Source of the DNA: an uncultured Ignavibacteria bacterium
Lineage (GTDB): Bacteria > Bacteroidota > Ignavibacteria > UBA10030 > UBA6906
Length of the DNA: 64,000 bases
Direction of reading: 5' to 3'
Assembly (NCBI GenBank): GCA_963780165.1
Contig: CAWABB010000007.1
Coordinates: 35,173-99,172, forward strand
The translations under genes were made by a program, and so were the position numbers. Of the stretch, positions 15,678 through 57,090 are shown in pieces (position 1 is the first letter of the stretch; each line of letters opens with the position of its first letter). Below the pieces are notes generated by a model, which was given only the letters and a program-made list of their open reading frames with translations, ran no database searches and had not been told where the DNA came from.

Positions 15678-18600
15678 TTATCTCACGAGCACGAGCCTCT
15701 TGGTCTGCACAAAGTCACCCGCTCCGCTCTTGGAGTCCAGAGGGCGGACTTGCAGCCGATAGAAGTACACTCCTGAGGCAAGCGTCGTTCCGTCAAACCT
15801 CACCTCGTGGTAGCCCGCCTCCTGCGGCTCATCCGCCAGGTCCGACACACGCTGACCCGCCGAGTTGAACACCGCCAGCCTCACCATCGAGGGCTCAGGA
15901 AGCGCATAGCGGATTGTCGTCACCGGGTTGAACGGATTCGGGTAGTTCTGCAGCAGGCTGTACTCCGTCGGCATCTCCACCGGAACCGCTTCCACTCCCT
16001 CCTTCGCCAGGGCTCCAACCTTCGCTATGACGACATTATCCAGGTAGATGGTGCGTGATGCCGTGCCTCCCACAAAGTAGAACTGCAGCATCGCATCATT
16101 GACCGTCCCCGTGAAGTTTGCCGTCGTGAAGTCAAGCGTGTAGGTCTGGACGCTCGTCGTCGGGTACACGTACCTGAATGCGAACCCGTACACCGTGTAG
16201 TCGTCGTTCTGTTCGATCACCCGCACCCGGAAGCTGGTGCTGGCCGAGGCATGGTAGTCAAACGTGATCCGGTACGCCGTGTTCGCCTCCAGCGTCAGAC
16301 CCCGTCTGATAGAGCTGGTTGTTCGTCCCGATCGTGCTCCCCAGGACGATCCTGGCCTTGTAGGCACCTTCGGGAACCGGTGCCGTGGTCACCACGCTGA
16401 AGGCATTGCCCGTGCCGTTGTGGTAGAACTTCCACGGGGCTCGTCCCACTTTCAAACCCTCCGTTGACCACGAGGTTCGCCGAGGGGGGCGGCGTAGTGG
16501 TGATGTTGAACGGCACCGAGGTCGCTCCCGTGAGGCCTGAGGCAGAGGCCACGAGCGTGTAGCCTGTCCCCGGATTGTCGATCGTGAGTGTGCTGAACGT
16601 CGCCACACCACCCACGGCAGCAACCGTCTGCGTCCCACCCAGCGTTCCTGCGGCAGGGTTCGTCCCAATCGCCACTGTCACATCCCGCGTATCCGTTGTC
16701 ACCAGGTTCCCGCCGGCATCCGTGATCCGTACCGTCACCGCCGGGGTGATCACCCCGCCTGCCAGCGTGTTCGACGGCTGCGTCCCGAACATGAGCTGTG
16801 TCGCCACAGGGGGCGGTGTCTCACCCTGTTTTCGTAATGACTATGTTATCCAGGTAGATGGTGCGTGATGCTGTGCCTCCCACAAAGTAGAACTGCAGCA
16901 TCGCATCATTGACCGTCCCCGTGAAGTTTGCCGTCGTAAAGTCAAGCGTGTAGGTCTGGACGCTCGTCGTCGGGTACACGTACCTGAATGCGAACCCGTA
17001 CACCGTGTAGTCGTCGTTCTGTTCGATCACCCGCACCCGGAAGCTGGTACTGGCCGAGGCATGGTAGTCAAACGTGATCCGGTACGCCGTGTTCGCCTCC
17101 AGCGTCAACCCCTTCTGATAGAGCTGGTTGTTCGTCCCGATCGTGCTCCCCAGGACGATCCTGGCCTTGTAGGCACCTTCGGGAACCGGTGCCGTGGTGA
17201 CCACGCTGAAGGCATTGCCCGTGCCGTTGTGGTAGAACTTCCACGGGCTCGTCCCACTTTCAAACCCTCCGTTGACCACGAGGTTCGCCGAGGGGGGCGG
17301 CGTAGTGGTGATGTTGAACGGCACCGAGGTCGCTCCCGTGAGGCCTGAGGCAGAGGCCACGAGCGTGTAGCCTGTCCCCAGATTGTCGATCGTGAGTGTG
17401 CTGAACGTCGCCACACCACCTACGGCAGCAACCGTCTGCGTCCCACCCAGCGTTCCTGCGGCAGGGTTCGTCCCAATCGCCACTGTCACATCCCGCGTAT
17501 CCGTTGTCACCAGGTTCCCGCCGGCATCCGTGATCCGTACCGTCACCGCCGGGGTGATCACCCCGCCTGCCAGCGTGTTCGACGGCTGTGTCCCGAACAC
17601 GAGCTGTGTCGCCACAAGGGGCGGTGCCGCACCCTGTTTTCTAATGACTATGTTATCCAGGTAGATGGTGCGTGATGGTGTGCCTCCCACAAAGTAGAAC
17701 TGCAGCATCGCATCATTGACCGTCCCCGTGAAGTTTGCCGTCGTAAAGTCAAGCGTGTAGGTCTGGACGCTCGTCGTCGGGTACACGTACCTGAATGCGA
17801 ACCCGTACACCGTGTAGTCATCGTTCTGTTCAATCACCCGCACCCGGAAGCTGGTACTGGCCGAGGCATGGTAGTCAAACGTGATCCGGTACGCCGTGTT
17901 CGCCTCAAGCGTCAGGTCATTCTGATAGAGCTGGTTGTTCGTCCCGATCGTGCTCCCCAGGACGATCCTGGCCTTGTAGGCACCTTCGGGAACAGGTGCC
18001 GTGGTGACCACGCTGAAGGCATTGCCCGTGCCGTTCTGGTAGAACTTCCACGGGCTCGTCCCACTTTCAAACCCTCCGTTGACCAGCAGCGTCGGCCCAG
18101 GGCCTCCGCCCAGCGTCGTGAACTGCTTGATCTCCCCGCTCGAGGTCCCCCAGGTGTTGTTCGCCACCAGCCGGTAGTAGAGGGGACTTCCCGCAGGGAG
18201 GCAGTCAACGCCTGCGACACCGCCACATTGCTCGTCCCGGGATCCAGAGACTGCTCGGGAGAGCTCGTGCCCAGCGCGTTTGTCGGCCCGTACTCGAAGT
18301 GGTACAACGTCGTATGTCCCTTTCGGGTTCACCGTCCCGTTCAGCCTGGCCGAGGTCTCGGCGATCTCGGTCGCATCGCCCGTGGTCGCGACCGGGCCCT
18401 CGTGGGTCACAAACTGCTTGATCGCCCCGTTCGAGGCCCCCAGGGTGTTGTTCGCCACCAGCCGGTAGTAGACGGTGTCACCCGCAGGGAGGCCAGTCAA
18501 CGCCTGCGATACCGCTACATCGACTCGTCCCGGTATCCAGAGACAGCTCGGGAGAGCTCGTGCCCAGCGTATCCGTCGGCCCATACTCGAAGTGGTACAG

Positions 18601-21547
18601 ACGTCGCCGTCCCTTTCGGGTTCACCGTACCGTTCAGCCTGGCCGACGTCAGGGTGATCTCGGTCGCATCGCCCGTCGTGGCGATCGGGCCCTCGTGGGT
18701 CACAAACTGCTTGATCGCCCCGTTCGAGGTCCCCAGGGTGTTGTTCGCCACCAGCCGGAAGTAGACGGTGTCACCCGCAGGGAGGCTTGTCAACGCCTGC
18801 GACACCGCTACATCGATCGTCCCGGCATCCAGAGACAGCTCGGGAGAGCTCGTGCCCAGCGTATCCGTCGGCCCGTACTCGAAGTGGTACAACGTCGCCG
18901 TCCCTTTCGGGTTCACCGTCCCGTTCAGCCTGGCCGACGTCACGGTGATCTCGGTCGCATCGCCCGTCGTCGCGACCGGGCCCTCGATCAGAAGAACGGA
19001 CTTCAGGACCGTGCCCCAGTCGCCGACCGCAAGGTACCTTCCACCCACATGTGTCACACCTCTCAGGGAGTTCGTGGTACCGGTATTGTCCTTCGTCCAG
19101 AGCGTCCCACCGTTTGTCGTTCTGTGGAGACCACCCCCAAGTCAGAAGGACCCAGTTCGAGGCGTCAACGCAGGTGATAGCCGGTCCACCTCAGATTCCC
19201 CGAGGTTTCCCACGTGGACCCACCGTCGCTTGTGACGAAGACCGTCCGCTCACCCGAGGGTGCGGCAGCTCCGATCATGACTTGCATTGTTGGACTAATC
19301 CACTGGACGTCACGCAGGGCCACCGAGGGGGGAGTCGTCGAAGGTGTCCACGTGGCTCCGCCATCGGTGGTCCGGAGAACCACCCCTTTGTCTACTCCGC
19401 CTCCGTAATCCGTTCCCACCGCAATTCCATTCTGCGCATCTCCCATCGCAACACCGTGGAGCTCGTAGGGCAAGCCGGACTGGACTTTCTGCCAGTTCGC
19501 CCCTTCGTCGGTCGTCCGGAATATTACCCCGCCCGCACCGACTGCAATGCCTATCCCCGACACCGCAAATGACACGTCATACAGTTCGGGGTTGCCCGAG
19601 GGCACCAGTGTGGCGAGGGTCCATGTGTCCCCGGCGTCGGTCGAGCGCACAATTCCACCATATCCCACGACGCATGCCACCGAAGACGACGCAAATGCGA
19701 CGGCCTTCGCTTCAATCAGACGACTATCCGCGGAACTCCTGTCGACCCAGGTCGTTCCACCGTCGGTGGTTTTGAAGATCAGATCGCCCCCTGCCGTCAG
19801 ATAGAAATTCTCATCTCTCGCGGCAACACCAATGAGCCCTGTGAGAGCGGACCATCGATTGCGCCGGCGTTTCCTGAATCGACCACAATGTCGGCTCAAC
19901 CGGGAGAGGAATGCTTTGCCCCTCCGACTCGGTTCTTCCAAGAGCATTTGTGGCCACGACACGGAAGTCCAGTTCAGGAAAGGCGGGAATGTTTCTCAGT
20001 TTTTCCGTGAGTACAGTTCGAGCGCCGATCCCTTCCATTCCGTTGCTGGCTGGCACGAAAACGTTGCCGTACGAAATGTCCTGTCCCCATTCAATTTCAT
20101 ATGTCGTCGGGAGACCATTCGGATCAATGGTCACATAGAAGCGTGCCGAATTATACGTTACATCATCTATCGTCAGACGATGGATAATCGGCGCCCCGGG
20201 TGTGAATTTCTCCAGGGTGATGGTGTACGGTCCAGTTGGGGCGTTCGTCCCGCCGTGCGCACCAGGACCCAGGCGTTCGGGGAGTCCGCCACATCCTGCG
20301 CACCCCGACCCCGGGTGCTCTGGGCTTCCCATGGATAATCCTTCCCTGCTGGACGATCTCCATCCTTGTCGGTCATCTCAAGGTTCTTGAGACGTATCGA
20401 AGATTGGACCGGCAGTTGAGTTGCTCGCAGGCGTGCGGTGTTCCCTCCGACCGGGGGCTGAATCACGGGGCTGTTGGGGAAGACGCCGGTGTTGGTCAGG
20501 GAGGAATATCGTACATAGTAGACATCGCTCTCGGGGACAACCACCGTTATGCCTTACGGAGGATACGCCTCTGAATAGTAGCCTTTGCTCTCTATTGAAC
20601 AAAAGCATTTTGTAGTAGGGGCGATGACGGATCGACCGTTGACCTGACCCTGATCGTGTCTCCAGCCTTTGCGAATGTGACGTAGTAATCAACGTCCTCG
20701 ACGGCACTCGTCTACTCCTGTGAGCGACTCACCGAGGACGATCGTGTTGGACAAGCCTGCATGGTCGTTCGGCTCAGTTTCAGTCGTCAGCCCATGGTTC
20801 GGATTGTAGTTGTTGAAGTAGACAAGCGGCAGCGTCTCATCAACCATTCCAAACGTCGCACTCCTGTTGCCATACTGGTCTTCCGGTCCCACCCAGGCCT
20901 CCCACCCGCTGCCCGGGGCCCCGGCTGTGCTGATCTTGAAACGGTACTGGCTTGTCGTGCCGCCGGCCATTCGCACCGTCCGCGAATAGACCGTCCCGAC
21001 TGGGCGTCAGTGGTTCAGGAAAGAGAGAGGGAAGCCCCACTTGATCGGTGGCAGGATTGAACATGCCCAACGCGATATAGGGCCCCATCTCAACCTGAAA
21101 GGTCACATTGACGGAGACGAGATCCGAGTATTCGTCGAAGTTGTTGAATGATGCCACCGGCAGAGTCTGGCTGCCGGCGACAACCGTGTATCTCCGGTTC
21201 CCGTCCGGTGGATTCCCGGGATCCACGTTCCCCTCCAGGGAGATATCGGCCCTCGGAGTCTTGAAGAACTTGTACTCGATCGGACCTTCGGGGAGGTTCA
21301 TTGCCAGGGTGTACACGCTGTCGCCCTCCGGGTCGCTCATCACCCGGGCGTTATCCTCCGCCCAGCCGTCGACACTCGATCGCAACACGATGAGATCGCC
21401 GTTCTGCGGCTGGAAGAACTCGTGATACATCACGACGCGCATGTCCACCTGAAACGTCACCTCGTTCTGCGCGAAGGCCGAGGCAAGTGGAACGGACGCG
21501 AGCAGGATCAAAAGACCCACGAAGAGCAACCGTTTGAAAGGCTGCAT
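15678..21547 (-). CDS. Giant secreted multidomain protein (signal peptide, CBM20-like, PPC-like, FN3-like, BNR/YCF48-like propeller, 3 FN3-like, 3 CBM4/9-like with Ig-like spacers, T9SS/FlgD tail), split by many frameshifts
   Basis: Successive ORF fragments (20840, 20689, 20173, 19811, 19165, 18515, 16821, 16295, 15678) are collinear with the intact paralog at 29059-33153; starts MQPFKRLLFVGLL and has QNYPNPFNP near the end. Confidence 0.8.
16036..18085 (-). repeat. Near-identical intragenic tandem repeat of about 810 bp (CBM4/9-like + Ig-like unit), about 2.5 copies
   Basis: caggtagatggtgcgtgatg recurs at 16041, 16851 and 17658; the translated blocks are almost identical. Confidence 0.9.
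18120..18990 (-). repeat. Three near-identical FN3-like repeats of about 294 bp
   Basis: ccgttcagcctggccga near 18337, 18630 and 18921; peptide ATTGDATEI..SARLNGTVNPKGT repeated. Confidence 0.88.
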
Positions 21548-22124
21548 GGCACCCCCCATGAAGGTAGGATACGGCTGGTGTGAAAGAGAGCAGATGAAGA
21601 AAGGTTGGAGAGAGAAAGGAAGCTGGCAGAGATCGGCCTGGTTCAAAACACCCGTCACAATATAATCAGAACAGAAGTGTCGAAGTACAGAGATTCTCCA
21701 AAGAGAATTCTGCACCAGTCTACCTGATGAGATACTGCGGGCTCTAATCACACCGTGCGTGATTACGGTCAAACACGCGCTGCGAAGTCGGTGCGTTCGC
21801 TCACGCGGGAGGGACAAATACCGCCGAGGGAAGAAGTATCTCTGGACATACTCAAAGGCATGTGGCGATCTCTGCCGCCCGACTTCCGGCCATGGTCGCG
21901 CAGGGGCTCCTCGAAGCACGCCATAGTATCCATACGAAGTTCTACCCCCCCCCGCTGAGACCCGCAAAAGCCCTCCGTCTCTTACGACACAAGCGAGCGC
22001 TACCTCTCTGTGGAGGGTCTCTTCCAGTAGCAGTGCTTTCGAGAGGGCAGAGACAAGAGATTTTCATTGATTCTCCGCTCTTCCTCTGCTACTTTCCGCC
22101 AACGCCCGGGACCCGGGGGCCACG

Positions 22125-22692
22125 ATGGCATTCCTCCACAACCTCACCTCACGACTGCGCCAACGAGGCGACCGCCACGCGACCGTAGGCGAATTGGCCG
22201 CCGGAGCGGCCCACGAGATCCGCAACCCGCTCACGCTGATCCGGGGTGCGGTCCAGCTGGTGACGCCCGAAGTGCCGCCGGCACGCCGGCCGCTTCTGGA
22301 GACCGCCCTCACCGATGCCGACATGGACGATCTCATCCGTCAATCGATGCTGCTGCTCAAGGCGGAATTTCAAAACCGCGGGATCGACGCAGCGGTGGAC
22401 GTCGCCGAAGGGAGACGCCTGGCGGGAGACGCCCGCGGAGAGCCGTCGCTGATCGTCCAGATCCGCGACACCGGCCATGGGATCACGGAGGAACACCGCG
22501 CGAGGGTCTTCGACCCATTCTTCACGACCAAGGAGGGAGGGGACAGGACTCGGGCTCTCGATCGCTTACGGGATCGTTGCCCAGCATGACGACGGAATTT
22601 CCATCGAATGCAGCACGGACCACGATAACCAGTGGACGTGCGTGACTGTGACGTTGCCCCGCAGCGGAACCGCACCCGGAATCGACACATGA
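22125..22692 (+). pseudogene. Degenerate sensor-less histidine kinase (HisKA + partial HATPase)
   Basis: H-box AHEIRNPL, G1 IRDTGHGI, F-box VFDPFFTTK, then a frameshift to G2 GTGLGLSIAYGIV; no N-box; stop overlaps the response regulator ATG. Confidence 0.75.
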
Positions 22693-24104
22693 CGGTCCTT
22701 TCAACAACCGGCCGCGTGCTTGTGGTCGACGACGAGATGCCGGTACGCCTTTTGCTTAGGACGCTTCTCGAGGCCGACGGACTCGAGGTCATGGAGGCCG
22801 GCGGCGGAGCGGAGGCGCTCAACGCGCTCGGTTCATTCAGGCCGCATCTCGCAATCATTGACCTCCAGATGCCACGGATGAACGGCATCGAGGCACTCAA
22901 CAGGATCAAGGAGAGACAGCCTGGAATCACCTGCGTGATGCTGACCGCCCACGGGTCTGTACAGTCAGCTGTTCAAGCCATGAAGGCTGGCGCGTACGAC
23001 TACCTCACGAAGCCCTTTGACAACGAACAGCTGTTGCTGGTCGTTCGGCGCGCCCTCGACCGAGCCATGCTGAGCGAGCAATTACAGGAGCTACAAGCCA
23101 GACTCAACGTCGGGGAGGGGATCGAGAAGATCCTGGGCGATAGCGCTGTGATGCAGGATCTGCGCCACCAGATTATGAGGATTGCGGATACGGATGCGAC
23201 TGTGCTGATCGAGGGGGAGACCGGAGTCGGCAAGGAACTTGCCGCCCGGGCTATCCACTTTCACAGCAAACGAAAGGCGGGTCCCTTCGTCGTAGTGAAC
23301 TGCGCAGCGGTTCCGGTTCACCTGGCTGAGAGTGAGTTCTTCGGCCATGAGAAGGGGGCCTTCACAGACGCCACCTCTACGCGGGCTGGAAAGTTCGAGC
23401 AGGCAAATGGCGGGACGCTTCTTCTGGACGAAGTCTCGGAGCTGTCGCCCGAAATCCAGGCAAAGCTTCTCCGGGTGCTGCAGGAGCGCACGGTCGTCCG
23501 CGTTGGCGGTACCGAGTCGTTCGTGGCAGATGCCCGCATAGTCGCAGCCTCCAACCGACCCCTTGAGAACCTTTCAAGAGAAGCCAAGTTCCGGCAGGAT
23601 TTGTACCATCGTTTGAACGTAGTCCGTTTATCGATCCCTCCATTGCGCCAGCACCCCGAAGACATAGCCCCTTATGCAAACAACGCGATACTGCGGGCCT
23701 CAGCCGGCCTCGGCAGCAAAGTCCGCTTCATAAGTGATGGGGCCATCGAACTGCTACGCGTGCATTCTTGGCCCGGCAACATCCGGGAGCTTGATCACGT
23801 GATCCAGCGGGCAATGGTATTTGCGGAGACCGACACTCTGGAGACCAGAGACATTGAAGACGCATTGCCGCCAACATCGGGGTCAGCAGGAGCGGTCGAA
23901 GGTTCTGGTCTTGGGCACAAAGTGCGCCTCATTGCAGAGGAAACCGAGCGACGGCTGATCATTGAGGCTCTGGTGAAGACCGGTTGGAACAGGACGGCAG
24001 CGGCGCAGCTCCTGCACATCGGTCGCCGGACGCTCTTTAGCAAGATCGAGAAGTACTCGATTGTCGCCCCGGACGAGGTGCCGAATCTGCCCGGCCCCCA
24101 ATAG
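22689..24104 (+). CDS. NtrC-family sigma54-dependent response regulator
   Basis: Receiver VVDD/IIDLQMP/TKP, Walker A GETGVGKE, GAFTDA, Walker B LLLDEV, Fis-type HTH. Confidence 0.95.
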   Translation: MTVLSTTGRVLVVDDEMPVRLLLRTLLEADGLEVMEAGGGAEALNALGSFRPHLAIIDLQMPRMNGIEALNRIKERQPGITCVMLTAHGSVQSAVQAMKAGAYDYLTKPFDNEQLLLVVRRALDRAMLSEQLQELQARLNVGEGIEKILGDSAVMQDLRHQIMRIADTDATVLIEGETGVGKELAARAIHFHSKRKAGPFVVVNCAAVPVHLAESEFFGHEKGAFTDATSTRAGKFEQANGGTLLLDEVSELSPEIQAKLLRVLQERTVVRVGGTESFVADARIVAASNRPLENLSREAKFRQDLYHRLNVVRLSIPPLRQHPEDIAPYANNAILRASAGLGSKVRFISDGAIELLRVHSWPGNIRELDHVIQRAMVFAETDTLETRDIEDALPPTSGSAGAVEGSGLGHKVRLIAEETERRLIIEALVKTGWNRTAAAQLLHIGRRTLFSKIEKYSIVAPDEVPNLPGPQ

Positions 24105-24484: not shown

Positions 24485-25576
24485 TTGGGATCTACGACAG
24501 TCAATACAGGAGAGATTCGCACACTCCTCGAGGCCGTCCTTGGGGGGGCATACACTCCTGCTGAGGCGTCCTCCATCGTCAATCTGTGCCATAGGTTTGC
24601 GACGGCGTACCTGCGGATGAAGGCAGCGCGAGGTGTGTCTGATCCACAAAGGATCGGCGCTTCGGTGGATCAGTTGGCCTTCGACTCCATCGCCGAGCTC
24701 TTTGCCCGCCACGATGATGGGCGATTTCATGTGCTCGAACGTTACTTCGTCCGCCTCGGTCCCCTGGCGCACCTCTCAGACGACCAGCTGATCGCGTTCC
24801 TCCGGAGACTCATCTTCAGTGCGGTCAATAACCACCGGTATCGCACCTTTCGGGAATTCGAGCCCTGGCTGGGCCGCATCTCCCGCAACATCAAGCTGAC
24901 ACTGAAGGACCATAAGTCGTTGATGCTCGCAAAGAGGCACGGGTTCCCCAGCGTTGCGCTCCGTAATGGTCCCAAGGAACGTGAGGGTCTTCCCGAGTTG
25001 CCCTCGGAGTTTCTCCAGGCGGAGTTCTTTGCGGCCGGTGTCCACGAATCAACTCTTCGGAGAATGCTCGACGCGGTCGCCGAAATACTTCGTGCGCAGC
25101 ACGCCTACGCCGTCTCGCTCCCCCTGGTACAAGTCACCGAACTCGTTCACACAGCCTATCTGGCCCAAAGGCCCGTGGAGAGTGACATGGTCGAGGATTC
25201 GTCAATCGCCGATGGAGAGTTGAGATTGCTCATCAGTCGAGTCGTCAACACCCTCAAAGTCGGCAAGATCGCAGGATACGTTCGAAAAGGGAAGATCCCC
25301 CAAAGCGATGTCGGTGCGTATTGCGCGACCCTAACGGAAATCCTTGAGTTGACTTTCTTATCGAACAACGGCGACGGGCAAACATACTACTCGGTTTTTC
25401 GGAATCACATGCCCGGGGTAGGCAGCAGAACATACCGTGGGACGCACCGCCCCATCCTCGAGTACCTGGCCAAAACAGCCAAGTCCGCTATGCGATCGAA
25501 ACTCCTGGTTGAATTTCGGTTTCCGCAGGGAGGTCGTCTTGCTCCAAAAGTAGGTGTGGGAGCAACCCATGACTGA
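24485..25576 (+). CDS. Hypothetical protein, divergent extended sigma70/ECF-like factor
   Basis: Region-2-like segments DQLAFDSIAELF and FLRRLIFSAVNN; overlaps the downstream ZAS gene. Confidence 0.5.
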   Translation: MGSTTVNTGEIRTLLEAVLGGAYTPAEASSIVNLCHRFATAYLRMKAARGVSDPQRIGASVDQLAFDSIAELFARHDDGRFHVLERYFVRLGPLAHLSDDQLIAFLRRLIFSAVNNHRYRTFREFEPWLGRISRNIKLTLKDHKSLMLAKRHGFPSVALRNGPKEREGLPELPSEFLQAEFFAAGVHESTLRRMLDAVAEILRAQHAYAVSLPLVQVTELVHTAYLAQRPVESDMVEDSSIADGELRLLISRVVNTLKVGKIAGYVRKGKIPQSDVGAYCATLTEILELTFLSNNGDGQTYYSVFRNHMPGVGSRTYRGTHRPILEYLAKTAKSAMRSKLLVEFRFPQGGRLAPKVGVGATHD

Positions 25577-26396
25577 CCGTCACTTCACAGATGACGAGCT
25601 GGACCACATGGCGCGCCAGAAGGGGCACGGCATGCATGGCGCTCTTCGTGGACATCTCCGTGTTTGTGTAGCCTGCCGGGAAAAACTCTCATTCCTGATC
25701 GAGTTCTACGCTATGGTGGGGGAGGAACTCCAGAAGGCACCTGATCCCCAAATCGCAAAGCTCGGCTCGCCTGCGCCTTTGCCGGTCCGATCATTCCAAC
25801 TCCACTTCTTCCGCCCCTCTCCTGATCTGACCTCGCTGGGAGTCCGCGAGCCTTCCATGCTTCTGGCAGCGCAGACAGTCAGCGAGACAATGGGGGCCTA
25901 CGTTACCGTCGCGACGTATGCTTCAGAACGTGACCGTGCGCTTGTTCGCATCACGAGAAAGGCCGGGAGCGACGAATACCAGCTCAACCTCGTGACACCC
26001 GGGGATCAACCCGCGGGTCGGGCCCTGGTCTCTCTTGCAGGGACCCCCACATCCATTCCACCTATTCTCACCGGCGAAGACGGATCCGCGGCCTTTGCTC
26101 TCCCCGGCGAAGTTGCATGGGAGAGCCTCACAGTGCTGGCCTCGCTGCCTATTGCCCGAGTCGTCGTGCAGGCCCCACTCGCAGACGGTCTCGAGCTTGC
26201 GGACCGCAACGTGTCACTGCTCTTCTCCGTTCTGGAAAGCGGACTTCGCTTGACGGTTCGCGGTACTGCGTCCGTGGGTCATGCTTCACTTGTCTCATCC
26301 GACGGCCAGCAGCAGGTCGTTCGAGTACGTGATGGGATTGTTGCGTTCTCGCAGCCCTGGGACACGGACACAGGGGAAATCCTGCTGTTCCCGTGA
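25569..26396 (+). CDS. Putative zinc-finger (ZAS) anti-sigma-like soluble protein
   Basis: HFTDDEL...HLRVCVACRE matches Hx3Cx2C; no TM helix seen; beta-rich C-terminus. Confidence 0.6.
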   Translation: MTDRHFTDDELDHMARQKGHGMHGALRGHLRVCVACREKLSFLIEFYAMVGEELQKAPDPQIAKLGSPAPLPVRSFQLHFFRPSPDLTSLGVREPSMLLAAQTVSETMGAYVTVATYASERDRALVRITRKAGSDEYQLNLVTPGDQPAGRALVSLAGTPTSIPPILTGEDGSAAFALPGEVAWESLTVLASLPIARVVVQAPLADGLELADRNVSLLFSVLESGLRLTVRGTASVGHASLVSSDGQQQVVRVRDGIVAFSQPWDTDTGEILLFP

Positions 26397-26400
26397 CATA

Positions 26401-28650
26401 ATGCTCGACCCAATCACCGTCGAACAGAGTTACCAGAATCTCGCCCACGCCCTTCGGCTGCTGTCCAGCCCGAGAGCCCGTATCCTCCAGATTGTCGATT
26501 TCCTCGAACCGCTGGTGCAATCCAGTAACGAGAGCTTTTTGGGGGCCTATCGCCTCGAGCTGTGTCCAAGGCTCTGTGAGCTGCTCATTCACACCGATCT
26601 GTCCTGCACCCCCTCCTCGTTCCTTCAGAGGTCGAGCGCACTGCTTGACGCGATTCAACTTGCGTATCCGGAACTGAAAGACGACCACACCCTGGGGGCT
26701 GCCAGGCAGCACCTGGTTGATACCCGACAGACGATCGGAGAATGGACACAAGCCAGAGGAGTGGCGGACCTTCTGCCCCGCGGCGAAGGGAGGCGCGATC
26801 CTGACCTTGCTTCAGATGCTGCCTGGGTGCCTCTTGTTGAGCACGAGCCAATTGTTTCTTCGCGGCCGGCTGGGTTTGCCTTGCTCAGACAACTCCACGT
26901 TGAGGTATTACTGGGAGGCCGCTCGCCAGCAAAGGACAAGATCTACGTTAATAGGCGGGCTGATTTTGAGGGAGTGGAGCATGAAACTATTCAGGAAGCT
27001 GTCGTTGGCGCGAAGTTGCTGTTTGAGCAATTTACCGGGGGAAAGTTGAGGAAGTCTCTCCGGGTATACTGCGAGCTGGACGATCCACACCTCGTTGAGG
27101 GCGACTCTCTGGGGCCTTCACTCGCGATGCTGGTGTTCTTCGAACTTCTGAAGCTTCACCACATTCGCGAGCTGTTTGCGATGTCGTCACGCGCAGCCAT
27201 TACGGGCCGAATAGGAGCGGACGGTCTGGTACTGCCGGTCGATGAAGCAGGCCTTGAGAGAAAGCTCGAAGCGTGCATGTACTCCTGGCTGCGCGTACTC
27301 GCCGTCCCGCGTGAACAGGAGAGACAATGCAAAGAAATTGTCGAACGACTGGCGTCGGAGCCTGACGCACCCCCTGCCCTTGAGGTTGCGGGAATTTCCC
27401 GGCTCCAGGAAGTGCTTCTGGATCGGCGGCTTACGGTGGGATGGCATGTGCCGATTTCAGTGTACGTGGCTCGACGCGTCTGGGAATGGCGGAGGCCACT
27501 TGCAGGAGCGATCATTGTTGGTTTGGCAGTGACTCTGGGCTGGCGGCTACTCGCACCTCTGGATCGCACACCTGCGGACGCTGTCTTTGTCGCGAATGAG
27601 CTGGTGGTCAATAACCGGTTCGGAGAGGCAATCGAGCATATTCTTGTTGCGGCGTCTGTCACTCGCTATGCTGAACTTCACTTTCAATTAAGTGGTGGGA
27701 GACTGGTATCGCTCTGTGACGTGGACGGCGACGGCAGAACCGAGGTGGTCTGGGCGGACGCGACCCCCGAGACGCCGAGCTTCCCGTCTGTCATCCACTG
27801 CAAGACCATCGGCGAAGACACGCTTCGGTGGACATTCAATCTGCAACGCTCGCTGAAGTTTGTGCGAAACAAGGATGTTCACTCGCCTATGTTCGGAGCG
27901 GGAGCCTTGATTGCGGGTGACGTCGACCGTGATGGTCGAGCGGAGGTCCTGATTGTCGCAAATCATGAGCTGTTCTTCCCATCCTTGCTGATCAAGCTGG
28001 ATGCGCGAGTCGGGCAAGAGATATCGCACTATGTGCACGTCGGGCATTTGACCGGACTCCTCTGTGTTGATCTGGATCTCGACGGACAGGACGAGACCGT
28101 CGCCTATGGAACGAACAACGCCTTCCAAATGGCCGTTGTTGCGGTCTTTGATCCGAGGAAGATAGAAGGACACTCACCGCTCACCGCCGAATATGCGTTG
28201 GAATCATATCAGCCCGGAACAGAGAAGATGTATTTGGCGATTCCGCGGACTATTGTGGGGACGGCTCTCGCCGATAAGGTGCCCCACAACGGAATTCGTC
28301 GCATGGTAGCGGTGGGGCGCGATCATCTCACGCGTGTTGATGTGGTGGACGTCAGTTATCATTTAGGAGAATCGGATCAACTTTCCGCCCATGTGTACGC
28401 GTATTTCGGCAAGAATTTGGAATTCAGGGGATTCTCAACTGGTGACGACTACGATATCCTGGCCGAGCGGCTGTTCGCCGAAGGTCGCATAGCTCGCAAA
28501 CCCGACAAAGCCTACTTCGAGGAGTTGGGGAAGTCCATCCGATATTGGGACGGGGAGGGGTGGCAGACGTCGCTTGTTTTGAACAAGCACTACCTCAGAT
28601 GGCGTGATACCACAGCCGCACAGACCCGTCCAAACCCTCTGCAGCAGTAA
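26401..28650 (+). CDS. Membrane protein with a Lon-like S16 protease domain, one TM helix and FG-GAP/DxDxDG repeats
   Basis: VEGDSLG..AAITGRIGADGLVLPVDEAGLERKLEA..VLAVP parallels Lon KDGPSAG..AMTGEI..VLPIGGLKEK; TM PLAGAIIVGLAVTLGW; DVDGDG, DVDRDG, DLDLDG. Confidence 0.75.
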   Translation: MLDPITVEQSYQNLAHALRLLSSPRARILQIVDFLEPLVQSSNESFLGAYRLELCPRLCELLIHTDLSCTPSSFLQRSSALLDAIQLAYPELKDDHTLGAARQHLVDTRQTIGEWTQARGVADLLPRGEGRRDPDLASDAAWVPLVEHEPIVSSRPAGFALLRQLHVEVLLGGRSPAKDKIYVNRRADFEGVEHETIQEAVVGAKLLFEQFTGGKLRKSLRVYCELDDPHLVEGDSLGPSLAMLVFFELLKLHHIRELFAMSSRAAITGRIGADGLVLPVDEAGLERKLEACMYSWLRVLAVPREQERQCKEIVERLASEPDAPPALEVAGISRLQEVLLDRRLTVGWHVPISVYVARRVWEWRRPLAGAIIVGLAVTLGWRLLAPLDRTPADAVFVANELVVNNRFGEAIEHILVAASVTRYAELHFQLSGGRLVSLCDVDGDGRTEVVWADATPETPSFPSVIHCKTIGEDTLRWTFNLQRSLKFVRNKDVHSPMFGAGALIAGDVDRDGRAEVLIVANHELFFPSLLIKLDARVGQEISHYVHVGHLTGLLCVDLDLDGQDETVAYGTNNAFQMAVVAVFDPRKIEGHSPLTAEYALESYQPGTEKMYLAIPRTIVGTALADKVPHNGIRRMVAVGRDHLTRVDVVDVSYHLGESDQLSAHVYAYFGKNLEFRGFSTGDDYDILAERLFAEGRIARKPDKAYFEELGKSIRYWDGEGWQTSLVLNKHYLRWRDTTAAQTRPNPLQQ

Positions 28651-29058
28651 GTCAGCCTCCGCGGTTTTCTTCCGCGCCCATTTCTTTCCCGTTCTTGCAG
28701 GTGTTGCGTCCCGGAGTGTATCCATGATCGAGTTCTTGTATCAAAAACATCCGGTGACTGCGCGCACCTGTTCCCTTTCGCGCACATGACGCGGATCACA
28801 AGCTAGACACGCTGAATCTGCCGGGGTTCTCCCAGCGAGGTCGACCTTTGACTTCGTTCCTACATTCCACGTCAGTCCAGCATCAGGCGACCTGACATCT
28901 TTCTTTCCATTGTCTCTGCGCTGAGTCACTTCTGTGATTAGTATCCTGTGAATGGCTCCTCGGATCCGGCTGATGTCTGCCGGTTTTGCCTTCCGCTCCA
29001 AATTCACTTCACCTGTTCTCTTTCACGCCAGATTCATCCCACAACAACAGGGGGTGCT

Positions 29059-32000
29059 ATGCAGCATTTCAAGTGGTTGCCATGGGCAGGACTTCTCCTG
29101 CTCCTCATTTTCACATCGGGCGCGCCGGTGTTGGCGCAAGGTGACGTTGAGTTTCGTGTCGACATGCGCGTCATGATGGAACACGACTTCTTCAGGCCCC
29201 AAGATGGTGACAATGTCTACTTGACCGGGAACTTCTCGGGATGGAATGGGGACTTCATTCCCGACCGTCAGTTATCGGACCCCGATGGAGATAGTGTCTA
29301 CTCCATTACACTCGGGCTGCCAGCTATGGACTTGGAGTACAAGTTCTACAAGTCACCGAGGGGCGGCTTGATGTGGGAGCTGAATCCGAATCCTTCAAAT
29401 CCGCCATGGGGCAACCGGCAGTACACAATCGTTGCGGGTACCCAGATCCTTCCTGTGGTGTTCTTCGATAACTACAACGCATACAATGATCTTGTCCCCA
29501 TTAATGTCACATTCCGGGTCGAGATGGGGCCGTACATTGCAATAGGCATGTTCAATCCGACCACCGACCAGGTGAAGGTTCCGCTCTGGTTTCCCGAGCC
29601 GCTGACACCGAGCGGGACAATCTATTCGATTACGGCAAAGGTTCCGCGAGGGATTTCCGGCAGCTATAAGTACCAGATCAGCACGCCCGGTGCCGCAAAC
29701 AATGGTTGGGAAGCCTGGGTAGGTGAGGAACGGCAGTACGGCAATCGACTCGTTTCATTTGGGATGACTGATGAAACGCTCCCACTGGTCTATTTCAACA
29801 ATTACAATCCCAACGATGGGCTGACGACAGAGACAGAGCCTAACGGAAAGCCTGGGCAGTCGAACACGATCGTCATGGGTGAAACCCTCACGGGGGAGAT
29901 TAGCGCGGTGGAGGATGTGGACTACTACATTCTGTTCGCCAAAGAGGGTGATACCATCAGAGTAAAGCCGATGGTCGATCAGTCGTCGCCGCTGGACTAC
30001 AGAATGACGTTGCATGGCCGAGACGGTGGTGGATATGCATCTGCGTACCCTCCGTACGGCATGACACTGGTTGTTCCCTATACAGATGTCTATTACATAA
30101 GATTCTCGACCGCCTATAATGGTGACTGGTTTCCGACCGGTGCCGTCGCCCCACATTCGGGCGGAGGAGCCATGGGCCAGCCGCAGGTCATCGCCTTTCC
30201 TGGAAAGACTCCCACGCGCCTTACCAACCTTGAGCTACCCGGAACCGTCCAAGGTTTTCCGACGGATAACGAAACGGTGCGAAGGAAATCGGATCCTCGG
30301 GGTCGAGAGACTCAGGCACGCGCACAAGGCCCGACCGGATCATACAGTATATCGCTCACAGAATTTGTCCCCGGGCCACCGATTATCAACTATGGCTGGG
30401 TGTGGGATATCGTGTTCAACTCAGGGCGTTTCTATTTCGAGATGGACCCCAATGGCCTCGAAACGACCTTGGAAGTCGAATGGGGAACCACGATCGGCTA
30501 CGGTGAGGTTTTCGACCCAAAGGGCAATACGCTCGATGGCGTTGGAATGCGCGGTTACTACACTGACGAACTGATGAATCTCCAGCCCTCGACCGAATAT
30601 CACTTCCGTCTCAGGGCCAGAAATGCTCTCGGGGAAGCGGTCTCGGGAGACCAGGGGTTCTCTACCCCGCCTGAGCCGACCTTGTGGGCTCATCAGGAGA
30701 CACCAGCGCAATCTATGGCCGACTACTTAGGAGGGTCTTGGGGCATTGCGGCGAGGGACCAGAATGTGTACCTGGCTGCTGGAGCGTATCGTGTCTTCAG
30801 AACAACCGACGGTGGATCCACCTGGGTCGACAAAAGCTCTGAGATTGATGGTTGGATCGATGGGCGGGCCATCGCATTTGCTTCATCTTCGGTCGCTTGC
30901 ATCGTTGGATATGGATGGATCCAGCGTTCGACCGACGCGGGGGACACGTGGACCCGCGCCACGGTAGCCTCTTCACCTTACCGCGAAGTGTATGATGTGT
31001 CATTCCCTGTGCCGGGGGTTGGGATAGGTGTCGGATATGACGGCGTAATCCTCCGGAGCACTGACGAAGGGGCGAGCTGGCAGGAAGTGCAGCTCGGCGC
31101 GCCTTATGCTCTGCGCGGCCTGGCAATGATAGATGCGTTGAACGGAATCGCGGTGGGAGATTACTATGGCGGTGGTGGCGTAGTCATCCGGACATCCGAT
31201 GGCGGAGTTTCCTGGACCCCCTCCACAGCCCCATCCTCCACTGTTTTGTATGACGTGCAGTGGATCTCGCCCAGCGTGCTCGTGATGGCGGGCCTGGAAG
31301 GGACGTACAATAGCCCGGCGATCTTTGCGACGACGGATGGCGGCGCAACGTGGGAGAGTTCAAATATTCCAGGAGAAGCGATCGCATGCGTAGACGCCAA
31401 GAACTGGATTGCAGTTGGGTGGGGAGGGCAAATCCATCGAACAACCGATGGCGGGAAGAATTGGGTAAGAGATGAAAGTGGCACCAATAACGCCCTCTTC
31501 GACGTGATTCATGTGAGCGGCCGTTTCCTCGCGGTAGGCGAGTGGGGTACAATCATGAAATCAATCCGCTTGATCGAGGGCCCGATTGCGACGACGGGTG
31601 AACCGACGGAGGTCACCGAGAACGCTGCGAAGTTGAACGGGACGGTGAACCCGAGCGGGACTATAACGACGTACTATTTCGAGTATGGGCCCACAGACGC
31701 TCTCGGCTCGAAGTCTGATGAAACCATATTGAGCCCTGGTACGGCCGACGTCCCGGTCTCGTTCCTGCTCGAGGGGCTTGAACCTGGCCGCACGTACTTC
31801 TACCGGCTTACAGCCAAGAACGTGTCCGGTACGTCACGGGGGAACATCCTGCAGTTCAAGACGATCTCCGACGGCCTTGCCCCTCCCGTCACTATCAATG
31901 GTGGTTTTGAGAGCGGTCTCGACCCGTGGGTATTCCACACCGACGCCGAGGGGTCCGTATCGTCACGGACACCTGGCCCGAGCAGTCCCCGCTGTGCGCA

Positions 32001-33153
32001 TATTACGCTCCAGTCCATCGGGCAGAACATGCAGCTCTACCAGTCCGGCCTCAAGCTGGAGCCTGGTGAGCTGTACCGGCTGACGTTCACCGCGAAGTCG
32101 TCGAAGGGACATAACCTTGCCGTCTACCTTCACAAGAACAACTCTCCGTACACACCATACGGACTCACCAAGGCGGTGTTCGATCTGACGACGGAGTGGA
32201 AGACGTTCTCGATCGAATTCCGTACGACCGGGTTTGCGAGTCCAGTCAGTGACGGGCGGATTCGGTTCTGGTTCGTAGGGTATGCATCAGCCGCGGATCA
32301 GTACTACATTGACGACGTGATTCTGCAGAAGACGGGGGAGCAACCTCCGCCTCCAGGGCTCGTCGATGCAATCATCAACCCGGGGTTTGAGACCGGGCTG
32401 CCTCCGTGGACCTTCTATACGAACGGTGGCGGAACATGCATTTCGAACTCTCCCGGCCCTGAAAGCCCGCGGTCGGCACATATCACGATCACGAAAGCTG
32501 GATCGAATGTCCAGCTGTATCAAACAGGACTCAAGCTGTATGCCGGAGCGCGCTATCGGCTGACTTTCAGCGCATACGCCAGCACAGGGCATGATCTCTC
32601 CGTCTACCTGCAAAAGGAGATATCTCCGTACACGGCGTACGGGATCTCACGGGTGAAGTTTGACCTCGAGAATGCCTGGAAGACCTTCACGTGGGAATTC
32701 ACAACATCGGGCTTCACAGGCAGCGCGAATGATGGGATGTTGCGAATCTGGCTTGCTCCATACGCGGTGTCGGGGGATGTGTACGGCGTTGACAACGTAC
32801 ACCTCGAGCAGCTCCCGAGCACGCTGGCAGAACGGGCTGCTGGGAATCTCGTGAAAGCATCAGAGTTCGTACCGGTTGAGACGCGGCTGAGCACGAATTT
32901 CCCGAACCCGTTCAACCCGTCAACGACCATCGAGTTCTCCATGGCCACGGCGGGTGAAGTGCATCTCGAGGTGTTCAACACGCTCGGGGAAAGGGTTGCG
33001 ACATTGGCCTCTGGATGGTATGACGCCGGCCAACATATGCTCACGTGGCATGCCACCAGTGACCGCGGCGCGCCGTTGCCTTCGGGGGTGTACTTTGCAC
33101 GTATGCAGGCCGGGGACTACTTCGCGACTCAGAGGATGCTGTTGCTGAAGTAG
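29059..33153 (+). CDS. Secreted multidomain protein (CBM20-like, PPC-like, FN3-like, BNR/YCF48-like propeller, 2 CBM4/9-like, T9SS/FlgD tail)
   Basis: Signal peptide ending VLAQ; VEFRVDM, ETEPN..DVDYY, repeated S/T-T-D-G-G, NGGFESG and NPGFETG, NFPNPFNP. Confidence 0.88.
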   Translation: MQHFKWLPWAGLLLLLIFTSGAPVLAQGDVEFRVDMRVMMEHDFFRPQDGDNVYLTGNFSGWNGDFIPDRQLSDPDGDSVYSITLGLPAMDLEYKFYKSPRGGLMWELNPNPSNPPWGNRQYTIVAGTQILPVVFFDNYNAYNDLVPINVTFRVEMGPYIAIGMFNPTTDQVKVPLWFPEPLTPSGTIYSITAKVPRGISGSYKYQISTPGAANNGWEAWVGEERQYGNRLVSFGMTDETLPLVYFNNYNPNDGLTTETEPNGKPGQSNTIVMGETLTGEISAVEDVDYYILFAKEGDTIRVKPMVDQSSPLDYRMTLHGRDGGGYASAYPPYGMTLVVPYTDVYYIRFSTAYNGDWFPTGAVAPHSGGGAMGQPQVIAFPGKTPTRLTNLELPGTVQGFPTDNETVRRKSDPRGRETQARAQGPTGSYSISLTEFVPGPPIINYGWVWDIVFNSGRFYFEMDPNGLETTLEVEWGTTIGYGEVFDPKGNTLDGVGMRGYYTDELMNLQPSTEYHFRLRARNALGEAVSGDQGFSTPPEPTLWAHQETPAQSMADYLGGSWGIAARDQNVYLAAGAYRVFRTTDGGSTWVDKSSEIDGWIDGRAIAFASSSVACIVGYGWIQRSTDAGDTWTRATVASSPYREVYDVSFPVPGVGIGVGYDGVILRSTDEGASWQEVQLGAPYALRGLAMIDALNGIAVGDYYGGGGVVIRTSDGGVSWTPSTAPSSTVLYDVQWISPSVLVMAGLEGTYNSPAIFATTDGGATWESSNIPGEAIACVDAKNWIAVGWGGQIHRTTDGGKNWVRDESGTNNALFDVIHVSGRFLAVGEWGTIMKSIRLIEGPIATTGEPTEVTENAAKLNGTVNPSGTITTYYFEYGPTDALGSKSDETILSPGTADVPVSFLLEGLEPGRTYFYRLTAKNVSGTSRGNILQFKTISDGLAPPVTINGGFESGLDPWVFHTDAEGSVSSRTPGPSSPRCAHITLQSIGQNMQLYQSGLKLEPGELYRLTFTAKSSKGHNLAVYLHKNNSPYTPYGLTKAVFDLTTEWKTFSIEFRTTGFASPVSDGRIRFWFVGYASAADQYYIDDVILQKTGEQPPPPGLVDAIINPGFETGLPPWTFYTNGGGTCISNSPGPESPRSAHITITKAGSNVQLYQTGLKLYAGARYRLTFSAYASTGHDLSVYLQKEISPYTAYGISRVKFDLENAWKTFTWEFTTSGFTGSANDGMLRIWLAPYAVSGDVYGVDNVHLEQLPSTLAERAAGNLVKASEFVPVETRLSTNFPNPFNPSTTIEFSMATAGEVHLEVFNTLGERVATLASGWYDAGQHMLTWHATSDRGAPLPSGVYFARMQAGDYFATQRMLLLK

Positions 33154-56547: not shown

Positions 56548-57090
56548 GTGAACCCTATGGCGGACACCCCTCCAACCCGGTCTGGAGTTAAGCCTTCTGA
56601 TCTCTGGATCGCAGCCTACAAACAGTACTTCGCGTTCTGGAAAAATCTCGCGAGGACTATTCATCTGTCGTCCGAAGAGGCTGAGGACGTCGTGCACACC
56701 GTGATCGCAGGATTGCTCACGGATGGGGCGCGCGACTTTGAGTCGCTCGAACACCTGAGGAACTACGTATCGCGAAGTGTTCTCAACAGGGCGATGCAAT
56801 ACAAGCAGCGGTCGAAGCGGTTCTCCGTCTGGGAGGAGGCCGTGGAGGTGAAGCTAGCGTGTGCCCCCGATCTGGCCCCGGGAGACGCCGAGCTTTTACA
56901 GGGCTCGTTCAGGCGCGGGTTGCTTCGACTGTCGGACAGTGATTTCCAGCTAATCAAGTTACGGTTCTTTACGGGACTGACGTTTGCCGAGTTGAGCACG
57001 CTCCTGGGCATGCCCATATCGACGCTCAAGAGTAGGGAAATCTCCGCGTTGCGCAAACTTCGCACCTGGATGCGCGACGACGGGTTCTAA
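56548..57090 (+). CDS. ECF-type RNA polymerase sigma factor
   Basis: Region 2 EEAEDVVHTV..YVSRSVLNR; region 4 LRFFTGLTFAELSTLLGMPISTLKSR. Confidence 0.8.
   Translation: MNPMADTPPTRSGVKPSDLWIAAYKQYFAFWKNLARTIHLSSEEAEDVVHTVIAGLLTDGARDFESLEHLRNYVSRSVLNRAMQYKQRSKRFSVWEEAVEVKLACAPDLAPGDAELLQGSFRRGLLRLSDSDFQLIKLRFFTGLTFAELSTLLGMPISTLKSREISALRKLRTWMRDDGF

Follow-up and report, generated by a model that had tools for sequence, protein, structure and literature searches.

How might a signal sensed outside the cell release a regulator that is held in the cytoplasm? This question is raised by three adjoining genes, here called g1, g2, and g3, in a stretch of 64,000 nucleotides (the window, to whose positions the coordinates refer unless another locus is named) from an uncultured Ignavibacteria bacterium of the phylum Bacteroidota (assembly GCA_963780165.1, contig CAWABB010000007.1, positions 35,173 to 99,172). 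An earlier note, made from the sequence of the window, had read the trio as a sigma-like factor, a zinc-binding anti-sigma (ZAS) protein, and a membrane-anchored receptor with a Lon-type protease domain that cleaves the anti-sigma and thereby frees the sigma. Lon S16 domains use a Ser-Lys dyad, and ZAS proteins sequester extracytoplasmic function (ECF) sigma factors that can be released by proteolysis. Our analysis suggests that the trio may be a protease-gated transmembrane signalling switch in which g3 cuts g2 to free g1, a reading that has in our judgement about an even chance of being right. The proposed cutting of g2 by g3 now has a plausible and specific candidate site for cleavage and degradation, which is described below.

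The three genes are co-directional and tightly coupled: g1 and g2 overlap by 8 bp (25569-25576) and a gap of 4 bp (26397-26400) separates g2 from g3, exactly as the earlier note had given (Table 1). The existing gene call for g1 (P0006) comprises 319 amino acids and begins at Met45, that is, at 24617 instead of 24485 in the long form. In the alignment with homologues, the upstream TTG start adds a conserved N-terminal helix. Because homologues of 360-375 amino acids align over 97-99% of the long form, we consider the TTG-start protein of 363 amino acids more likely than the shorter call.

The protease assignment of g3 was examined with a profile built from g3 and five relatives. Over g3 residues 193-340, this profile matched the protease domain of Archaeoglobus fulgidus LonB (1z0e_A) with E=6.3e-7, and it matched Thermococcus onnurineus Lon (3k1j_A) with E=7.7e-4. 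In the LonB alignment, GDS of g3 pairs with veGDSas and the Lys of GLERK with GGvtqKiea, and we take the residues aligned to them to be the catalytic Ser and Lys of the Lon family. Ser236 and Lys288 are invariant in all 21 Lon-helix-sensor proteins that we gathered from other genomes (21/21), and the Lon-like domain with both residues present, as previously claimed, is thus confirmed. Among g3 and its five profile relatives, Pfam detects Lon_C at E<=1 in four of the six (best 5.2e-4) and FG-GAP in all six. NCBIfam, which gave nothing useful for any of the trio proteins, finds in g3 only a 61-residue stretch of endopeptidase La (E=0.041), and no AAA/ATPase family is present among its Pfam matches at E<=1.

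Downstream of the protease domain, g3 contains a single hydrophobic helix and then a repeat domain in which DxDxDG occurs three times (residues 440, 507, and 557) and which is matched by Pfam FG-GAP_3 (1.5e-7) and FG-GAP (3.8e-5). Pfam and hydrophobicity therefore agree with the description of a protein without ATPase, with one transmembrane helix followed by DxDxDG/FG-GAP repeats. Since the lone helix follows the Arg-rich stretch RRVWEWRRP, the positive-inside rule makes it likely that the protease is cytoplasmic and that the repeats face outward, and we judge the proposed topology plausible on these grounds.

By its sequence, g2 begins with a zinc-finger domain of the anti-sigma type, continues with a linker rich in Pro, and has a C-terminal domain rich in beta structure. 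The protein from the window retains His5, His29, Cys33, and Cys36, which are spaced like the ligands in the zinc-binding domains of anti-sigmas, ChrR among them. We aligned 37 sequences, consisting of g2 relatives and the N-termini of partner proteins from a two-gene form of the locus described below (alignment A5). Pfam zf-HC2 matches 15 of these 37 members (best 2.2e-5), and the profile of the alignment retrieved the solved anti-sigmas RslA (3hug_B; E=0.0059) and RsiW (E=0.062). These matches support the view that the g2 N-terminus is an anti-sigma-type zinc-finger domain and speak for the ZAS-type assignment made earlier. The accompanying statement that g2 carries Hx3Cx2C and no transmembrane helix also holds: the sole hydrophobic window of g2 is marginal (1.63 in a 19-residue Kyte-Doolittle scan, with a cut-off of 1.6), is located in the beta-rich C-terminal part, and has no counterpart in the between-gene proteins of 13 relatives.

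Beyond the helical domain of g2, a Pro-rich stretch is followed by MLLAAQT. Across 23 g2-family sequences, the AA of this motif occurs in 22 and the full LAA in 20, and the surrounding region is otherwise variable. The Cys/His ligands are retained in six of 15 aligned g2 homologues and lost in nine. Because LAA or AA is kept in 20-22 of 23 sequences while the ligands are kept in 6 of 15, the alignments indicate that the linker, more probably than any zinc or redox chemistry, is the conserved switch of g2. The homologues that have lost or replaced the His/Cys ligands belong to one lineage of the phylum (L056, L061-L064, L066, L067, L073, and L077); their helical and beta domains are retained, and so is LAA. 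AA is missing from a single g2-like protein, encoded at locus L055, where a g1 homologue is followed by a g2-like open reading frame (ORF) of 274 amino acids; this is a single case, and no Lon-helix-sensor gene is present within the stretch fetched for this locus.

The comparison across genomes was based on a sample of 301 genomes of the phylum, 34 of which contain a total of 57 g1-like places. We dropped 14 weak or partial places and examined 44 loci, namely the 43 remaining places and one metagenome locus. In 18 of the 44 loci, that of the trio among them, a g2 homologue and then a gene for a Lon-helix-sensor protein come after g1. The recurrence of this order in several families of the phylum exceeds chance, and the expected co-occurrence of the three genes in other genomes was thus confirmed. 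The g2 homologue is located between g1 and the Lon gene in all 18 three-gene loci, and outside Lon-containing loci we saw the soluble g2 form only at L055. At 22 loci, the module takes a two-gene form, in which g1 is followed by a protein of 440-813 amino acids that combines an Hx3Cx2C domain, one helix, and a g3-type sensor. The Hx3Cx2C motif is present in 21 of these 22 partners, and both the Hx3Cx2C domain and the sensor domain are homologous between the two forms. The remaining four loci have neither sensor form, and in each of them an anti-sigma-like ORF still follows g1. Altogether, such an ORF stands after g1 at 43 of the 44 loci, so the pairing of g1 with an anti-sigma domain is obligate; the lone miss, L065, is probably due to a wrong ORF start.

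Some two-gene-form partners, a class that includes the proteins of L050 (813 amino acids) and L053 (803 amino acids), contain two sensor domains per protein, and at L066 and L067 two Lon-helix-sensor ORFs are arranged in tandem. When the 44 g1 proteins are placed on a tree, one weakly supported cluster (80/84) takes in 16 of the 18 three-gene rows, and the remaining two are found on long branches. Both forms occur in the genome from which the window derives, since contig 4 carries a two-gene module (locus L037) whose partner protein carries a sensor homologous to residues 384-724 of g3. Past this module, at a distance of about 0.8 kb, lies a convergent canonical ECF sigma gene (L037 8686-9240, minus strand). 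The comparison of the two forms suggests that in the three-gene form the sensor, which is usually fused to the anti-sigma domain, is joined to the protease instead, and that the anti-sigma domain set free in this way is the likely substrate.

Binding between g1 and g2 was assessed by modelling. A complex of g1 with g2 residues 1-80 reached a median score of 0.88 over three runs, compared to 0.02 for the best of three controls. For calibration, 58 of 80 solved complexes attain that mark, compared to 2 of 110 mismatched pairs. At least 58% of the contacts are common to the runs, the partner has a predicted local distance difference test (pLDDT) score of at least 66, and the confident contacts in g1 involve residues 5-6, 25-108, and 175-208. 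The model thus supports the predicted binding of g1 to the N-terminal domain of g2.

According to its AlphaFold2 model (mean pLDDT 89.3), g1 is an all-helical protein. It represents a large family, with 1412 cluster representatives (50% identity) at E<=1e-3 and 614 at E<=1e-30. When the g1 N-terminal domain was compared by hhalign with the 13 aligned ECF sigmas of the same genome, residues 67-138 were placed on sigma-2 in the right order (probability 13.7%), and in this comparison the nearly invariant Arg134-Asn135 of g1 stands opposite a conserved Asn of the ECF alignment. Foldseek searches against 350,542 chains gave sigma-32 as the first named sigma for the full g1 model (E=0.067, probability 0.89, template-modelling (TM) scores 0.25/0.32), with sigma-S lower in the list. 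For the N-terminal 146 residues (pLDDT 92.2), the top two matches were sigma-B (E=1.5, TMq 0.40) and ShbA (E=1.7, TMt 0.49). Among protein language-model look-alikes, only unnamed clusters score high; the nearest named clusters include Sigma70_r2 and Sigma70_r4 at 0.84-0.87, which we treat as leads only. Of all g1 homologues, one, L069 (also present as L030), gave E=1e-4 against a hidden Markov model of the ECF sigmas of the genome when filters were off; we rejected this match as noise because its register clashes with that of hhalign. The window itself contains an ECF-like ORF of 180 amino acids (56548-57090, plus strand; E=2.4e-9 with the genome ECF profile; 18.7 bits, below the Pfam Sigma70_r2 cut-off), which stands 28 kb from the trio.

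Taken as a switch, the trio would work as follows. In this scheme, g3 would be a single-pass receptor with its FG-GAP domain outward and an ATP-independent Ser-Lys Lon-type protease in the cytoplasm. g2 would act as a soluble anti-sigma-type protein whose zinc-finger N-terminal domain holds g1, and the output would be g1, which is most probably a highly divergent factor of the sigma-70/ECF-like kind. When the outer domain receives a signal, the protease may be activated through oligomerisation, that is, by bringing protease domains together, in analogy to the filament model of the CalpL protease discussed at the end. We infer that the protease would then cut the g2 linker at or beside LAA (residues 99-101), that the new C-terminus of g2 could work as an ssrA-like degron, and that a cytoplasmic unfoldase-protease would clear the g1-bound fragment, with the result that g1 is freed and could act as a sigma.

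Several results weigh against this scheme or against a sigma identity of g1. Pfam and NCBIfam assign g1 to no family, and for g1 and 138 relatives (139 members in all) 25 Pfam families are listed, none of them a sigma family. Three profile searches of g1 against solved structures returned TPR and other helical noise and no sigma, and hhalign of full-length g1 against the ECF sigmas of the same genome gave a probability of 1.4%. The structural matches to sigma factors rank first but are not significant (E 0.064-1.7, TM <=0.49). Upstream of the 44 g1 genes, no shared 6- to 8-mers stand out above shuffles and we therefore see no sign of an autoregulated promoter, but this k-mer test is crude and lineage-specific promoters are compatible with its result. 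In the complex model, the C-terminal domain of g1 (241-345) is without confident contacts, and the model may owe something to memory of solved sigma/anti-sigma complexes. The g2 protein of the window has no match to zf-HC2 even at E<=1, and Pfam Lon_C on g3 stays below its cut-off (E=0.087, 12.8 bits compared to 21.1). Cleavage, the cleavage site, and membrane sidedness are all predicted here. The earlier assignment of g1 as a sigma factor thus stays unproven and is still the weakest link of the reading, and on balance we lean towards g1 being a divergent sigma-type factor.

The failure of these searches to find a sigma is what gives room to the alternative that the switch operates as proposed but g1 is a DNA-binding regulator or a new-fold adaptor held by the anti-sigma-type domain. 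The length of g1 proteins (340-363 amino acids), which far exceeds the 178-216 amino acids of the 13 ECF sigmas, and TM scores below 0.5 to sigma structures point in the same direction. This explanation is nevertheless unlikely in our view, although it has to be taken seriously: the partner domain is of a type known to bind ECF sigmas, sigma factors are the first named matches in both structure searches, and sigma regions are among the nearest named language-model clusters. A canonical ECF sigma is encoded near only two of the examined loci (L037 and L006), so that no alternative sigma partner is in sight, and for this reason we set aside the idea that a nearby canonical ECF sigma is the true partner of g2.

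Two further explanations give the Lon domain another function. The protease may process g3 itself, degrade g1, or trim other membrane-proximal proteins, with g2 serving as a classical zinc or redox anti-sigma. The four His and Cys residues kept by g2 of the window fit the pattern of zinc-binding anti-sigmas and favor this possibility, which we nonetheless consider quite improbable, given that the ligands are lost in most of the aligned homologues, whereas the Ser-Lys pair and the AA of the linker persist, and that the soluble g2 form accompanies the Lon gene at every three-gene locus and is otherwise found at a single place. Alternatively, the Lon domain could have lost catalysis and serve only as a scaffold on which g2 docks at the membrane, and g1 would be released by conformational change without proteolysis. 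The sub-threshold Lon_C score of g3 and its low identity to related proteins (33-57% to the five profile relatives; against L006, the metagenome relative, the best tblastn segment shows 22%) speak for this explanation. Complete invariance of Ser and Lys despite such divergence is hard to explain without catalysis, however, and we give this explanation very little credence. Cutting of g2 by g3 to free g1 remains the reading that we pursue. In its fullest version, g1 would represent a large sigma-70-like clade missed by the domain libraries, which in 18 of the 44 loci would stand under a one-polypeptide receptor-protease. This protein would sense outside the cell, cut a soluble anti-sigma inside it, replace the intramembrane cascade of two proteases, and form an envelope-sensing counterpart of CalpL-CalpT-CalpS, including the LAA degron. 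We regard this fuller version as possible but somewhat doubtful.

Table 1. Features of the trio, its downstream neighbor, and the two-gene module of the same genome (coordinates of the last two rows are those of locus L037, with contig positions in brackets).
Feature	Position	Strand	Details	Source
g1	24485-25576	+	363 amino acids, TTG start	ORF list
g2	25569-26396	+	275 amino acids counted from ATG	ORF list
His5 of g2	25581-25583	+	upstream of Hx3Cx2C motif	
Hx3Cx2C motif HLRVCVAC of g2	25653-25676	+	residues 29-36	
LAA of g2 linker	25863-25871	+	residues 99-101; candidate cleavage site and C-degron	
g3	26401-28650	+	749 amino acids counted from ATG	ORF list
Lon-type (S16-like) protease domain of g3	26977-27420	+	residues 193-340	profile match to LonB
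Ser236 of g3, putative catalytic pair	27106-27108	+	in GDSLG	
Lys288 of g3, putative catalytic pair	27262-27264	+	in GLERK	
Transmembrane helix of g3	27496-27564	+	residues 366-388	Kyte-Doolittle 19-residue maximum 1.91
FG-GAP / DxDxDG repeat sensor domain of g3	27568-28605	+	residues about 390-735	Pfam
Secreted BNR/CBM_4_9 protein	28948-33153	+	1401 amino acids, type IX secretion tail	Pfam
g1 paralogue at L037	5235-6284 (contig 4, 206234-207283)		349 amino acids	
Two-gene partner at L037	6452-7849 (contig 4, 207451-208848)		465 amino acids; Hx3Cx2C domain, one helix, sensor	

The gene downstream of the trio encodes a secreted protein with a type IX secretion tail, which represents genomic context and a possible target of the trio. 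Of 41 sensor genes, 13 have after them, on their own strand, a gene that ends in a type IX sorting domain, and in nine of these cases it lies within 500 bp; these are raw counts and lower bounds, as 2-4.5 kb past the module were fetched. Loci with this arrangement include L040, L006, L073, L077, L041, L043, and L039. A paralogue of the 1401-amino-acid protein, with 37-67% identity to the intact copy, is broken up into five or more ORFs of differing frame on the minus strand (16821-21967), owing either to decay of the gene or to a series of frameshift errors. Upstream of the trio lie a short histidine-kinase fragment and then an NtrC-type sigma-54 activator. The kinase ORF (22125-22589, plus strand, 154 amino acids) contains HisKA and a partial HATPase_c only, is overlapped by another frame of 192 amino acids, and looks truncated or frameshifted; the activator gene directly after it (22632-24104, plus strand) is intact.

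As read here, the trio is an instance of a known principle, protease-gated release from an anti-sigma, in an arrangement that we did not find described and with a large unannotated output family. If this holds true, a single-pass receptor whose own Lon-type protease acts on a soluble anti-sigma would constitute a new transmembrane route that differs both from the classical cascade of two proteases and from partner switching. The scheme of Lon protease, anti-sigma, sigma, and degron would then reach beyond CRISPR defence and represent a general module with exchangeable sensors, and the large g1 family, which is invisible to Pfam and NCBIfam, would gain a testable role. The secreted glycan-binding proteins that flank the trio and bear type IX tails hint at control related to the cell surface or to polysaccharides. 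A defence-system reading was set aside in view of these neighbors, the extracytoplasmic sensor, and the lack of a PADLOC match; the PADLOC scan gave zero matches for the three trio proteins, which were its only input, the window not having been scanned for cas genes or arrays.

The earlier note did not recognise this arrangement among described ECF groups, and this claim of novelty stands in part. In the full-text literature, our search found the work on CalpL and no paper in which a Lon-type protease anchored in the membrane is paired with an anti-sigma. Lon, FG-GAP, VCBS, and protease are absent as whole words from the main text of the paper on ECF reclassification (PMC7826278), the part of that source considered here. 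The logic of the trio does have a precedent that had gone unmentioned, namely the Lon/anti-sigma/sigma triad CalpL-CalpT-CalpS. As described in a preprint, CalpL is a Lon protease fused to a SAVED sensor and cuts the anti-sigma CalpT; the N-terminal fragment of cut CalpT ends in ...LQLAA, which serves as a degron, and an Ala-to-Asp change blocks the release of CalpS (bioRxiv 10.1101/2024.05.08.593097).

By that account, both systems combine an ATP-independent Lon-type protease fused to a sensor with a soluble anti-sigma and a sigma-type partner, and the LAA degron of cut CalpT resembles the conserved LAA in the g2 linker, where cleavage would likewise take place. The same scheme fits the trio because the LAA of g2 is conserved, Ser and Lys of g3 are invariant, and the zinc ligands are dispensable. 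The components differ, again by that account: the sensor of CalpL is a cytoplasmic, cA4-binding SAVED domain, whereas in g3 its place is taken by a transmembrane helix with an FG-GAP domain outside, and CalpT is MazF-like with DUF2080, whereas g2 is of zinc-finger type with a beta domain. Pfam detects neither SAVED nor MazF-like nor DUF2080 domains in g2 or g3, and no CalpL chain is found among the solved-structure matches of the g3 profile at E<=10. Also unlike the CalpL system, the trio has in g1 a partner that is not recognisable as an ECF sigma.

Other systems share single elements with the trio. As summarised in the CalpL preprint, the type III-E CRISPR system of Craspase (TPR-CHAT), Csx30, and CASP-sigma follows a similar logic, in that a sensor-controlled protease cuts a sigma-binding protein and frees the sigma; there the protease is caspase-like and activated by RNA in a Cas complex, whereas that of the trio is Lon-type and part of a membrane receptor. 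LonB from A. fulgidus (1z0e) and T. onnurineus (3k1j) provides the best solved matches to g3 193-340, with Ser and Lys aligned, but LonB carries an AAA+ ATPase module, which g3 lacks, and has no equivalent of the outer repeat domain. With the zinc-binding class I anti-sigmas RslA and RsiW, g2 shares the Hx3Cx2C motif, the upstream His, and weak profile matches; it differs from them in that its partner is no recognisable ECF sigma and in that the zinc ligands have become dispensable in one lineage. ChrR and RsrA are also zinc-binding class I anti-sigma domains.

The closest parallel in terms of envelope signalling is RseA-DegS/RseP-ClpXP-sigma-E. RseA is a membrane-spanning anti-sigma and is processed by two separate proteases, DegS and RseP. 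The trio differs in having sensor and protease in one polypeptide and a soluble anti-sigma. The likeness, by the account of RseA in the CalpL preprint, would consist in an envelope signal that leads to the cutting of the anti-sigma, an Ala-Ala degron, and the release of the sigma by ClpXP, since the cleaved fragment of RseA ends in VAA and goes to ClpXP (bioRxiv 10.1101/2024.05.08.593097). The membrane-spanning layout of RseA is matched by the two-gene sister form in the same genome (L037 6452-7849). The natural two- and three-gene forms in one genome provide a built-in comparison.

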